DNA of 63,519 nucleotides, filler included, from Candidatus Desantisbacteria bacterium CG1_02_49_89 (GTDB lineage Bacteria; Desantisbacteria; UBA1551), in NCBI GenBank assembly GCA_001871075.1. It is 3 parts of 3 records of this genome, joined end to end, with 100 filler letters (N's around TTAATTAATTAA, not from the genome) between each part and the next. Parts side by side here need not be neighbours in the genome. Positions count along the whole stretch, not along the records: positions 46,910 to 63,519 come from MNUP01000004.1; 2 more parts are not named here. One strand, written 5' to 3'. Position numbers and translations under genes: made by a program. Positions 16,085 to 56,547 of this stretch are shown in pieces. Numbering within the stretch: the first letter of the stretch is position 1; each line of letters begins with the position of its first letter. The notes below the pieces were generated by a model. The model was not told the origin of the DNA and did no database searches. It was given only the letters and a program-made list of their open reading frames with translations.

Positions 16085-16440
16085 TTTAACCACACGATTA
16101 CACACGATTTACACGAGATTGCCCTTGTTCCTGCTTTGACACTCTGATTCTATGACTCTTTGACTCTAAATTTAACCACAGAGGCACGGAGGCATAGAGT
16201 AATCTTTGGTTTTTACAAATGACTAACAACTAATGACAAATGACTGCATTTTAACCACAGGTTAACACAGGTAAACACTGTTTGAGTAACTCAAACCTTC
16301 AGGTTTGATATCAGGGCTAAAGCCCTGAGTTATCCGCCCCGATGTTCATCGGGGCGAGACCTCGCCCCAAAGGGGCGGGCAATTAAATTCCTTGTTTTTG
16401 ATTCATAATTCATAACTCATAATTCATAATTGAATTTAAA
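16085..16440. repeat. Stack of about eight different repeat modules between purF-like and tgt
   Basis: (ACACGATT), (CTTTGAC), (CACAGAGG), (AATGACT), (ACACAGGT), TCAGGGCT-AA-AGCCCTGA, double hairpin 16333-16379, (TCATAAT). Confidence 0.9.
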
Positions 16441-24288: not shown

Positions 24289-24388
24289 NNNNNNNNNNNN
24301 NNNNNNNNNNNNNNNNNNNNNNNNNNNNNNNNTTAATTAATTAANNNNNNNNNNNNNNNNNNNNNNNNNNNNNNNNNNNNNNNNNNNN
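24289..24388. other. Artificial contig-joining spacer
   Basis: 44 N + TTAATTAATTAA (stops in all six frames) + 44 N; identical to 46810-46909. Confidence 0.95.
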
Positions 24389-25431: not shown

Positions 25432-25504
25432 NNNNNNNNNNNNNNNNNNNNNNNNNNNNCTTAAATCCATAAAAATAAAAAACTTTAGCAAAAATATGAT
25501 TTAA

Positions 25505-46809: not shown

Positions 46810-46909
46810 NNNNNNNNNNNNNNNNNNNNNNNNNNNNNNNNNNNNNNNNNNNNTTAATTAATTAANNNNNNNNNNNNNNNNNNNNNNNNNNNNNNNNNNN
46901 NNNNNNNNN
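46810..46909. other. Artificial contig-joining spacer
   Basis: 44 N + TTAATTAATTAA + 44 N. Confidence 0.95.
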
Positions 46910-49582: not shown

Positions 49583-50197
49583 ATGATAGCGGTAATAAAC
49601 TACGGGGCGGGAAACCTATACAGCATAAGCAAGGCACTCGAAGGGCTGGGCGCGAGCGTAAAAATAACCGACTCCCCTTCTGTTCTTAGTTCTGCTTCCG
49701 CGGTCGTGCTTCCGGGTGTCGGCGCTTTTGACGAAGCTATGGCTATTCTGCGGAAAACCGGGCTGGCGGATGCCATAAAAAGATCTGCCGAAGGCGGCAA
49801 GCCGTTTTTGGGCATATGCCTGGGCATGCAGCTCCTGTTCAGCGGAAGCGAAGAAGGCAAAAGCAAGGGCCTTGGTATTTTTAAAGGCACGGTCAGGCAG
49901 TTCAGCCGCAAACTGAAGGTACCGCACATGGGATGGAATGTTGTCAGGCAAAGAAATCAGTCACCGTTATGGAAAGGCTTGCCTGGCCGAAGGTGCTGGA
50001 TGTATTTCGCGCACTCTTTCTACCCAATACCAGCGGATAAGGAAGTTATCGCCGCAACAACCGATTACGGCGTTAAATTCGCCTCGATGGTCCGCAGGGA
50101 TAACGTGTTAGGGACCCAGTTCCACCCGGAAAAGAGCGGCACTTACGGGCTTATATTCCTTAAGAACTTCCTTGAACTAATTCATACGAAAGAATAA
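49583..50197 (+). CDS. hisH: Imidazole glycerol phosphate synthase glutaminase subunit
   Basis: PGVGAF, GICLGMQ, VPHMGWN, QFHPEKS. Confidence 0.97.
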   Translation: MIAVINYGAGNLYSISKALEGLGASVKITDSPSVLSSASAVVLPGVGAFDEAMAILRKTGLADAIKRSAEGGKPFLGICLGMQLLFSGSEEGKSKGLGIFKGTVRQFSRKLKVPHMGWNVVRQRNQSPLWKGLPGRRCWMYFAHSFYPIPADKEVIAATTDYGVKFASMVRRDNVLGTQFHPEKSGTYGLIFLKNFLELIHTKE

Positions 50198-50289
50198 CCA
50201 CGGAGACACAGAGGCACAGAGAAATTCTTGGTTTTAAACTTGACCCTTGATACTTGACCCTTGATACTTTATTTAAAAAAGGAGAGGAT

Positions 50290-51231
50290 ATGCTGGCAAA
50301 AAGGATAATACCGTGCCTGGACGTGAAGAATGGCAGGGTTGTCAAGGGCATACACTTCAGGAACCTGCGGGATGCCGGTGACCCTGTGCAGAACGCGGCT
50401 TTCTACAGCAAAGAAAGCGCTGATGAGCTTGTATTCCTGGATATCACGGCTACGATTGAAAACCGCAAAACTGTCGTTAATATGGTCAGGAAAACAGCTG
50501 CCAGGGTATTTATCCCTTTCGCGGTCGGCGGTGGGATCAGGAACATCAAAGACATCGGGGTCCTGCTCAGATCAGGCGCGGACAAGATCTCCATAAACAC
50601 CGCGGCTATAAAAGACCCCCTGCTGATAAAAAGGGCTTCCCGCAAATTCGGGAGCCAGTGCGTGGTGGTGGCGATAGACGCCAAAAGAATCACCAAAGTC
50701 AAAAGTCAAATTGCAAAATGTAAAATGTCCCCCCTTGCCCTTAATGGGCAGGCAGAGGGGATTTCGCTGCCAGCTCAACAAAAGTTTAAAACCCTTACAC
50801 GTAACACGTTATCCGCCCCGATGAATATCGGGGCGAGACCTCGCCCCAGTGCTTACTGGGGCGGGCACCTTACACCGTCTTCAAGGTGGGAAGTTTACGT
50901 CAACGGCGGGAATACACCGACCGGCATAGACGCGGTGAAGTGGGCGAAGAAAGCGGAAAAACTGGGGGCCGGCGAGATACTTCTGACAAGCATGGACAGG
51001 GACGGAACTTTAGACGGGTACGACATCCCCCTTACGCGCGCTGTCAGCGAAGCCGTGAATATCCCGGTGATAGCGTCCGGCGGAGTGGGAAACCTGAAAC
51101 ACCTGTATGACGGCATAGCGAAGGGAAAGGCGGACGCTGTGCTTGCCGCTTCCATATTCCACTATAGAAAATATTCGATACGCCAGGCAAAGCAATACCT
51201 TAGAAAACGGGGCATACCCGTGAGAATATAG
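50290..51231 (+). CDS. hisF: Imidazole glycerol phosphate synthase cyclase subunit with about 60-aa repeat-derived insertion
   Basis: [34 protein letters not shown]; insertion between AIDAKR and WEV. Confidence 0.96.
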
Positions 51232-51439
51232 GAAAAGCGTGTCAACGTGTCAACGTGTCAGCGTGTCAGAGTTTAAAAATAATCCTGGATTAAGGAATTT
51301 TACCTTTGACTTTGTCCCCGCAGATTTCTTATGAAATCTAGACGCTGGGATCCCTTAGGGACGATTTGACTTTTGACCTTTGAGTTCTCCGTGCCTCCGT
51401 GGTAATTTTGTAAATCCGTATGCATCCGCAAAAACAAAA

Positions 51440-52975
51440 ATGCAAGAGACAATATTAATACTAAATTTCGGCTCGCAGTATGACCAGCTCATAGCCCGCA
51501 GAGTGCGGGAAAACAACGTATTCTGCCGTGTTGTCCCATACAATATCAATCCCCGCAAGATAAGGGAGATCTCACCCAAGGGCATCATTTTTACAGGCAG
51601 CCCTGCCAGCACCTACAAAAGCAACATCAAACCCAAATCTGAAATCTTTGATCTTGGGATCCCGATTTTGGGCATATGCTACGGAATGCAGGTCATCGCG
51701 CACATGCTCAAAGGGAAGGTCAGCAAAGCAAAAAAAAGGGAATACGGGAACACGCCCGTCTCAATCCTGCGCAACGAAAAATTATTCGCCGGGATCCCGA
51801 AAAAATTTATCTGCTGGATGAGCCACGGGGACTATGTGGCAAAAATGCCCTGCGGTTTTGAAAGGATCGCATCCACAGGCAACACGGACATTGCCGCGAT
51901 GGCGGATAAAAAAAGGAATATCTGGGCTGTCCAGTTCCACCCTGAAGTGATCCACACCCGGCACGGCAAACAGCTTTTCCGAAACTTCCTTTATAAAATA
52001 TGCGGGTGCAGCGGCGACTGGACAATGGGATCATTAATCAAAGAGTCGATCGCTGATATCAGGGCAAGCGCAAAGGGCGGTAGGGTCCTTCTCGGCTTAA
52101 GCGGGGGCGTTGATTCGTCCGTGTGCGCGGTCCTTATTCATAAAGCGATAGGCAAGAAACTTACCTGTATATTCGTGGACAACGGCCTGCTGAGGAAAAA
52201 CGAGGGAAAACGGGTGCAAGACGTTTTCCGCAGGAATTTCAGGCTTAACCTGCGGTATGTCAATGCCTCCCGCAGGTTCCTGAAGAAACTCAAAGGCGTG
52301 CTTGACCCTGAACGCAAACGCAAGATCATAGGAATAGAATTCATCCGCGTTTTTGAGGCAGAGGCAAAAAAGCTGGGAAAGGCCGAATACCTCGCTCAGG
52401 GAACCCTGTACCCGGACGTGATCGAATCCCGCTCAGCTCTTGGCGGGCCAAGCGCCCGCATCAAAACCCACCACAACGTGGGAGGCCTGCCGGAAAAAAT
52501 GAAACTGAAACTCATAGAACCGCTTAAATATCTTTTCAAGGATGAGGTAAGAAAGCTGGGCCTGGAACTCGGGATGCCCGAAGAGATCATATGGCGCCAG
52601 CCTTTCCCCGGGCCCGGGCTTGCGGTGCGGGTCATAGGTGAAGTCACAAAGGAACGCCTGGATATACTGCGGGAAGTTGACAGGCTGGTTGTGATCGCGA
52701 TGAAAAAAGCAGGGCTTTACAGAAAATTATGGCAGTCATTCGCAGTCCTGCTGCCGGTAAAAAGCGTGGGAGTGATGGGCGATGAGCGGACCTATGAGAA
52801 CGCGGCCGCCCTGCGCATGGTAACAAGCGAGGACGCGATGACAGCTGACTGGGCGCGCGTCCCCTACACCATCCTCGCTGAGCTTTCAAACCAGATAATA
52901 AACGAGGTTAAGGGCGTGAACCGGGTTGTATACGACATCTCTTCCAAACCGCCTTCCACGATCGAGTGGGAATGA
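51440..52975 (+). CDS. guaA: GMP synthase
   Basis: [43 protein letters not shown]. Confidence 0.98.
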
Positions 52976-56219: not shown

Positions 56220-56547
56220 GATTTCCACCCCCGCAGCCCGTTATCGGGCTAACGCGGGGATTTCGCTTCCCGCTCAACGAAAGCACTCCGCCCGTCTTTC
56301 AGCGGGCGAGACTTCGCCCACCTGAAAGGATGGGCGAGGAAAGCACGAAAAATTCAGCCACGGATATCCACGGATAAATAATTTTTTAGCTTTTACAAAT
56401 GGCTAAAAACTAATGACAAATAACTGCCTTTTAACCACGGATGCACACGGATTTGCACGGATTAATCTTCTATCTGATACTTGACACTAAAAATAATCAC
56501 CGTAATCGCAGTTAAAAATCACCGTAATCATGATTTTAGGGGGAACA

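Follow-up and report, generated by a model that had tools for sequence, protein, structure and literature searches.

A repeat-derived and population-variable loop in the HisF enzyme of a Desantisbacteria genome

How can a biosynthetic enzyme carry repeat DNA in its reading frame, and how did that DNA get there? The question is raised by hisF, a histidine-synthesis gene of Candidatus Desantisbacteria bacterium CG1_02_49_89 (G000 in the coordinates below), which comes from groundwater and is uncultured. The gene lies in a 63,519-nt stretch of DNA, called the window here, that joins three contigs (C74, C75, and C76) and contains runs of N at 24289–24388, 25432–25459, and 46810–46909. An earlier note, made from the sequence alone, proposed that this gene holds an in-frame insertion of about 60 residues, assembled from the repeat modules of the intergenic regions and filtered by selection for frame. 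The features concerned, numbered along the window, are the following:

49583..50197, plus strand: hisH, the glutaminase partner, intact (TIGR01855, 227 bits; cut-off 105.4)
50290..51231, plus strand: hisF, 313 aa (TIGR00735, 371 bits; cut-off 294.55)
50677..50679, plus strand: codon of the catalytic Asp130, followed by three more residues and then the loop
50689..50886, plus strand: 66-codon loop at a predicted β-hairpin tip, between strands 125–133 and 200–204
50695..50727, plus strand: segment of the left (A-rich) heptamer array that precedes module C
50728..50778, plus strand: module C, 51 nt, no target duplication
50779..50794, plus strand: remainder of the left array and A-rich spacer
50795..50811, plus strand: segment of the right (TTACACG-type) heptamer array that precedes module D
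50812..50865, plus strand: module D, a 54-nt double hairpin of strain-variable presence
50866..50886, plus strand: remainder of the right array and hypervariable 21-nt tract
51238..51410, plus strand: intergenic repeat hub, comprising an octamer array, a spacer, and a heptamer array with inserted hairpins
51440..52975, plus strand: guaA, intact, downstream of hisF (profile match)

The genes follow one another in the order hisH, hisF, guaA, pyrG, and purF, and hisF is present as a single copy in the assembly. HisF and HisH form a textbook complex, in which HisH binds the face of HisF opposite the catalytic one. The protein is a HisF by its score above the curated TIGR00735 cut-off, its catalytic Asp11 and Asp130, and its TIM barrel; Arg5, Lys19, Glu46, and Lys99 are present as well. 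Asp11 and Asp130 are described as the catalytic pair on the C-terminal face of HisF, with Asp130, on strand β5, acting as the general base (PMC11350729). No hisA was found in the assembly, which has a completeness of 93.5%. Because contig C93 breaks off within hisD, and because hisA lies directly downstream of hisD in the only genome of the same order (G001), the simpler reading is a gap in the assembly; that hisF might be a pseudogene in a dead pathway is unlikely, the absence of hisA being better read as such a contig gap.

Between the motifs AIDAKR and WEVY of the 313-aa reading frame lie 66 residues, encoded by the 198 nt (66 codons) at 50689–50886, just as had been noticed. The HisF of G001 (251 aa, 81% identical outside the loop) has five residues at this position, so the net insertion is 61 residues and the estimate of about 60 was sound. 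Among the loops of other genomes, 14 of 21 have at most 8 residues and seven have 10–33 (29 loci were considered, eight of which were not parsed). The insert is crossed without a single difference by single contigs of two runs, X9 (50239–50912) and X24 (50567–50997); these are contigs rather than raw reads, and neither run is flagged as a possible source. Misassembly is ruled out by independent contigs that span the whole insert without mismatch. Three metagenome contigs carry the insert as well, and the protein is present on 21 contigs.

In an AlphaFold2 model of HisF based on a 64-sequence alignment, the mean pLDDT is 81.7, but residues 139–189 remain below 50; Foldseek superimposes the model on HisF-LUCA with a target-normalised TM-score of 0.93. 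Since the low-pLDDT segment falls between strands 125–133 and 200–204, the insert is predicted to hang from the tip of a β-hairpin just past the catalytic Asp130. In the model the barrel is intact despite the insert, and the extra loop residues are predicted to be disordered. The new protein sequence that the repeats had been proposed to generate would amount to a reading frame free of stops and a loop predicted to be disordered. Inteins begin with Cys, Ser, or Thr, end in HN or HQ, and are well over 100 residues long; no such ends are found at the insert, which is not an intein, and an Rfam search of the insert returned a single match, at noise level only. Nor is the insert conserved at the protein level in distant orthologues; conservation of that kind would have spoken against its origin from repeats.

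The related HisF proteins form a series of alleles, with loops of 5 (G001), 12 (P0006), 31 (P0003), 48 (P0002), 52 (P0004), and 66 residues (P0001, the window) in proteins of 251, 259, 278, 295, 299, and 313 aa, respectively. Successive insertion is supported by this series: the 31-residue loop contains no module, the 48-residue loop, which is encoded by contig L054, contains C only, and the 66-residue loop contains both C and D. The flanks are 94.7–96% identical among P0001, P0003, and P0004 and 100% identical between P0001 and P0002. The P0003 loop has exactly the module-free length with different words in its left array, and the P0004 loop combines the same 31 codons with two other modules (14 and 7 aa) and a different right-hand word; P0003 and P0004 are known as proteins only, their repeat words and the P0004 modules having been read by eye from the peptides. 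L054 lacks precisely 50812–50865, with no duplication, which is the presence/absence behaviour of REPs and REPINs. Alleles with and without D coexist in one sample: in run X11, the joint that skips the 54 nt has a depth of 27.1, the contig with D has 42.5, and the flanks have 66–84, while the ends of the contig with D fit a bubble from 50812 to 50886. As D segregates on a background that already carries C, insertion of C before D is the simplest order for this unrooted series.

The anatomy of the insert agrees largely with the initial description. The heptamers, the 54-nt module D at 50812–50865, and the resumption of the heptamer after D are all as described, and module C is indeed 51 nt long; its ends, however, are better placed at 50728–50778 than at 50729–50779, because a copy on contig C17 that lacks the final C fixes them. 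Both modules had been taken for hairpins, a term that suits D well (fold z-score of −7.8 relative to shuffled sequences) and C weakly (−1.1, no better than the shuffled sequences). The match of C to 56228–56278 lies mainly in a 22-nt tail, and its closest copies (91–98% over 53–56 nt) are on other contigs; the resemblance of D to 16333–16379 extends over the first hairpin and the core, whereas the second hairpin differs. Twelve members of the C family occur in the genome, two of them within genes, namely hisF and a gene of the ROK family.

Of the 132 D cores in the genome, 89 could be delimited, and the statistics given here omit the other 43. The delimited copies are 47–79 nt long, include 58 and 57 distinct hairpin sequences, have stems that look paired by eye, and are found on both strands of genes. 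D ends in imperfect 7-bp terminal inverted repeats of the MITE type; unlike a MITE, it has no target duplication at its hisF site, and across all delimited sites there is none at 65, one of 1 nt at 14, of 2 nt at seven, and of 7 nt at three. The base to the right of D is C at 55 of the 89 sites, and 37 of the 89 regain a 7–10-nt periodicity once D is excised, compared with 4.5% of random sites. That D truly inserts is indicated by one near-identical 53–54-nt variant, since it is found in at least five different array words. Other subtypes are bound to one host repeat, among them one with about 38 copies, and a 47-nt subtype has two REP-like hosts. A search pattern for D with 68 matches in this genome had none in 200 sampled other genomes, including G001; a species collection yielded 27 loci, mostly in records of Elusimicrobia, Omnitrophota, and Planctomycetes, with 23 apparently complete elements. 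D was also found in tRNA-like fragments of other phyla, and in Omnitrophota (L099, L102, L105, ~1385–1535) it appears, by eye, to have entered duplicated 3′ fragments of tRNAs at the T-loop.

When C and D are removed in silico, 93 nt, or 31 codons, remain in an unbroken 7-nt register, in which a spacer separates six A-rich units from four TTACAC-type units followed by a tail, with the two arrays in opposite polarity. This scaffold has the length of the P0003 loop, and its left array has the polarity of the arrays upstream of four-helix-bundle genes. Because opposed arrays in the same layout also enclose four-helix-bundle and GxxExxY genes of this genome, the scaffold, whose layout can be read directly, probably originated as an empty cassette shell. 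The intergenic hub at 51238–51410 has the same build as the hisF insert. Arrays of this kind are not confined to spacers: 188 of 2,289 short-repeat segments lie well inside the coding sequence of predicted genes, among the matches listed, some of the 188 being paralogous coding repeats rather than arrays.

Selection for frame, as proposed in the earlier note, is borne out by the D copies inside genes, all ten of which have lengths divisible by three, versus 23 of 71 between genes (Fisher p = 4.9e-5), although the test is partly circular in that gene calls themselves require open frames, and one gene among the ten is questionable. Both modules in hisF are multiples of three and free of stops, as claimed; the absence of stops carries little weight as evidence, 79 of the 89 D copies having 4–6 open frames. 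No gene broken by a D copy of another length was found among the 18 of 89 sites that have an open empty form. The ROK-family gene (G000 C96:9473–10543; P0057 cluster, P0125–P0134; P0011) has its module C inside a heptamer array. Its population records, 11 cluster members, include alleles truncated at the C-bearing array (three short N-terminal and three C-terminal pieces), which further backs frame selection; out-of-frame variants thus seem to arise, and assembly errors could mimic them. One of the six HisF cluster members, P0124, is a 98-aa C-terminal HisF fragment in the cluster without D; it could be a split hisF allele, and as such it would count against the view of the insert as a tolerated passenger.

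Besides gaining modules, the loop changes without altering its length. Over about 3.2 kb, nine positions distinguish L054 from the window, all within repeat tracts, and six of these fall inside the 21 nt after D (p ~ 1e-9 after correction). The same tract, 50866–50886, has two substitutions in L053 and one amino-acid change in P0121. Because P0003 agrees with the allele that carries D downstream of D, the tract of the D-less allele is derived and this allele is not a clean ancestor; loss of D combined with local rewriting therefore fits as well as a gain of D. A donor for the tract was found nowhere in this assembly within two mismatches. Equal-length exchange is also seen in repeat-domain proteins, where a 9-residue strand segment is a heptamer array in 17 of 30 anchored domains and a non-repetitive sequence of equal length in the other 13 (chance 0.2%); the 30 come from 93 domains, 63 being left out as unanchored, the words fall by eye into four families, and the change from non-repeat to array is unrooted in direction. 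Giant repeat-domain proteins are encoded at G000 C58:4196–20011, C91:2–7384, C21:5563–18369, C138:1–7527, C116:1936–8388, and C49:1–2694. As far as can be judged from sequence, the length of the scaffold is constant while its repeat words change, and since a slip of one unit breaks the frame, conversion-like or template-switch events would be needed. In 87 orthologue pairs with G001, drawn from 23 loci and 169,840 bases or about a tenth of that genome, two insertions overlap repeats, 20 do not, and another 21 have the opposite direction. The G001 orthologue of G000 C24:406–1311 (in L113–L132) has a 67-aa insertion of a 7-residue repeat.

The position within HisF is not peculiar to this species. 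A genome of another lineage, G008, has the same A-rich word in its HisF loop; a different array that includes a hairpin occupies the loop in L056, and an inverted-repeat pair occupies it in L057. Among HisF loops of at least 14 residues, 10 of 66 show a 7-residue periodicity, where 1.3 would be expected, in a set biased to long loops (114 parsed from 120 hits). Repeats have landed at this one point of HisF in many lineages. A literature search, its coverage excluding subscription journals, found no paper on inserts in this loop. In P0069, P0022, P0038, P0028, P0071, and L057, which belong to other lineages, the loop is filled by apparently REP-like repeats instead of heptamers, reaching 87 aa.

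Which genes might write or move such repeats? Seven of ten four-helix-bundle loci lie between inverted arrays, each with its own word, and all five GxxExxY genes lie between inverted arrays of 8–10-nt units (both by eye). Of 77 genomes that have a four-helix-bundle gene, 28 contain the A-rich array, compared with seven of 123 that lack the gene, an odds ratio of 9.5 based on raw counts that ignore kinship and GC content across the 200 genomes; a reversed control pattern matches many of the same array-rich genomes. G001 has no four-helix-bundle gene, no match to the A-rich array, and no D, and its loop is the 5-aa one. No paper tying four-helix-bundle genes to heptamer arrays was found in the literature covered, from which subscription journals were absent. 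One four-helix-bundle gene (G000 C125:7111–7343) is in two pieces with both arrays kept, and another (C34:5977–6285) has arrays upstream only. The proteins presumably resemble the Avd protein of diversity-generating retroelements (DGRs), and a partial reverse transcriptase gene, cut by a contig end at G000 C119:37000–37624 (L107:1300–1923), has motifs that we take to be DGR-like.

Around the ten Y1-transposase genes of this 93.5% complete assembly, the nearest D core is 3,916 nt away, and two of the genes have no D on their contig; those with flanking palindromes carry families other than D, which is not the arrangement of a cognate RAYT. The Y1 transposases of L037, L038, and L039 (G000 C23, C111) have clusters of palindromic repeats of their own on their flanks, and an IS200-like Y1 gene at L031:1400–1960 (G000 C83) has the same palindrome on either side. 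Elsewhere in the genome, D and other hairpins insert into repeats of the C23 type. Of seven small GIY-YIG genes, two lie beside a tRNA-Ser gene and are each accompanied, at a distance of no more than about 450 nt, by a pair of long D-type copies; at these two loci, G000 C81:19388–20018 and C142:772–1323, the D-type ends overlap either the 5′ end of the tRNA or a duplicate of that end. The majority of the remaining genes of this kind also lie among duplicated tRNA fragments or hairpin repeats. A crude motif scan of the 27 foreign loci detected no GIY-YIG- or HUH-like reading frame within 1.5 kb of D.

We regard the insert as probably a passenger, tolerated selfish repeat DNA that built up in two tiers in an accepting HisF loop. 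Its host would be a surface β-hairpin tip, where the barrel and the catalytic residues stay intact in the model and the extra residues are predicted to be disordered. The first tier would be the 31-codon scaffold, opposed heptamer arrays around an A-rich spacer, with its length locked by the frame shift that any gain or loss of 7 nt would cause; its words would still be exchanged jointly and without loss of register, short conversion or template-switch events being the likeliest cause. The second tier would consist of short GC-rich modules, which enter arrays base-precisely, mostly just before C and without target duplication; within genes they are seen only in stop-free versions of 3n length, and D is still segregating. 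Weakest is the step that moves them: an HUH- or RAYT-like enzyme that nicks and joins single-stranded hairpins in trans may insert the modules, precise and duplication-free insertion of a hairpin being best matched by an HUH-type reaction. The mRNA would be translated unaltered, and the insert would be neutral or slightly costly.

That no dedicated enzyme was involved is unlikely, though it merits serious thought; arrays would then arise by polymerase slippage biased to 7 nt, a mechanism proposed, at the polymerase contact length, for heptamer excess (PMC4692102), and modules would spread by gene conversion through flanking repeats. The absence of a cognate transposase from what was found and the ties of several D subtypes to one host repeat suit this explanation, yet one D variant in at least five array words goes beyond flank homology, D also occurs in tRNA-like fragments of other phyla, and single-unit slips break the frame, whereas whole arrays switch word at constant length. 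A cassette-linked templated system, in which a four-helix-bundle protein with a reverse transcriptase, or the small GIY-YIG genes at tRNAs, writes both words and modules and the hisF loop is a product, is in our opinion doubtful. It would account for the inverted arrays that bracket four-helix-bundle and GxxExxY genes, the co-occurrence odds ratio of 9.5, the short loop of G001 in a genome without gene, array, and D, the D-type pairs near tRNA-Ser at two of seven small GIY-YIG genes, the one partial reverse transcriptase gene, and the clustered replacement at unchanged length. The genes may, however, merely land in arrays as the modules do; the scan of the 27 foreign loci is negative; and the reverse transcriptase is truncated by a contig end and unlinked, while the likeness to Avd is presumed. 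Somewhat speculatively, such a process might insert opposed arrays at tolerant sites and overwrite coding sequence in register at constant length, with the four-helix-bundle, GxxExxY, or small GIY-YIG genes as enzymes or cofactors and the modules as hitch-hikers; the six changes between the hisF alleles with and without D, within exactly three heptamer lengths, would then be one event, a version that we find questionable as well.

For the rewriting step alone, the D-less allele and its clustered changes could be a very short recombination tract from a diverged relative. Mixed populations exist and the changes are clustered, but L054 equals the window across the remainder of hisF and guaA, where the mismatches outside the tract likewise fall in arrays, and we hold such an import to be decidedly improbable; that the assembly contains no donor within two mismatches speaks neither for it nor against it. 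It is highly unlikely that the insert is removed or skipped, by RNA processing, ribosome bypassing, or protein splicing, to leave a mature HisF of normal length. D does form a stable hairpin, and GC-rich inserts are bypassed in yeast mitochondria; against this, copies in genes are all of 3n length and open, which would be needless if they were skipped, and the hisF insert has neither duplicated take-off and landing ends nor intein ends nor an Rfam match above noise. An adaptive role as a regulatory or binding loop or a switch could be argued from the position of the loop on the catalytic face beside Asp130 and from the intermediate depth share of D in one sample. With a loop sequence that is not conserved among 95%-identical relatives, and the same repeats in many unrelated genes, we give this role hardly any credence.

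Several known systems resemble this one in part. The Rickettsia palindromic elements (RPEs) with which the insert was first compared provide a fair analogy for the outcome, palindromic repeats that occur both between genes and in frame within them, but not for family membership. According to PMC10969869 and PMC3733652, RPEs are palindromic repeats of about 150 bp that occupy spacers and unrelated housekeeping genes, in frame, and encode a conserved peptide; the modules here are 51–54 nt, nested in heptamer arrays, encode no conserved peptide, and are polymorphic at the hisF site within a population. REPs and REPINs share with D the form of small hairpin doublets and presence or absence in populations, and REPs within genes occasionally form in-frame clusters of 20–82 aa (PMC3733652, PMC3116915); Additional file 3 of PMC3733652, a table of REP-carrying ORFs, might include hisF. 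D and C, in contrast, begin with TCC and have no GTAG or CGTC tag, no Y1 gene is flanked by D, and D enters other repeats, including the REP-like units of this genome. The SDRs of Nostoc, attributed to Elhai et al. 2008, are reportedly cyanobacterial elements of 21–27 nt in STRR heptamer arrays that keep their structure by compensatory changes. They are likewise very small and structured, and they nest both within heptamer arrays and within one another; C and D, by contrast, have twice their length, and records of Elusimicrobia, Omnitrophota, and Planctomycetes also contain D-type elements. The heptameric simple-sequence repeats of Xanthomonas and Nostoc also have 7-nt units and opposed arrays, a minority of them inside genes, but use one or two G-rich words (PMC4692102); here there are many words, more than 100 in-gene repeat tracts, and word changes at fixed length. 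Borg tandem repeats likewise evolve fast and add disordered protein segments, but as perfect amino-acid repeats on archaeal extrachromosomal elements (PMC9879509), whereas the repeats here have a 7-nt unit, are locked in frame, and lie on the chromosome. Mitochondrial GC clusters are palindromic elements of about 40–50 nt that merge, shuffle, and segregate in populations; they are organellar and have putative target duplications (PMC4478555), of which there is none at hisF. In-frame repeats in enzymes are thus known from Rickettsia and REP-rich bacteria; the present analysis adds a fixed-length scaffold with changing words, a D-less allele with six substitutions in 21 nt, and paralogous domains that hold an array at unchanged length.

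The hisF locus offers a natural allele series of one assayable enzyme, with two alleles in one sample, so that the cost of the loop can be measured by complementation. A locked length with changing words constrains the mechanism, as single-unit slippage could not produce it inside a gene, and the orphan genes that arrays flank suggest candidate enzymes. These observations bear on why bacteria favour 7-nt repeats and on what moves 50-nt hairpins, and repeat-derived loops call for caution in the annotation and marker phylogenies of such genomes. Two further observations concern the window. At 49980–49995, L053 has three substitutions within 5 nt of hisH, which create a perfect 12-nt palindrome and alter two residues. 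A sequence of about 270 nt at 1–280 is found again at the termini of seven or more further contigs and is probably a collapsed repeat or the end of an insertion sequence.
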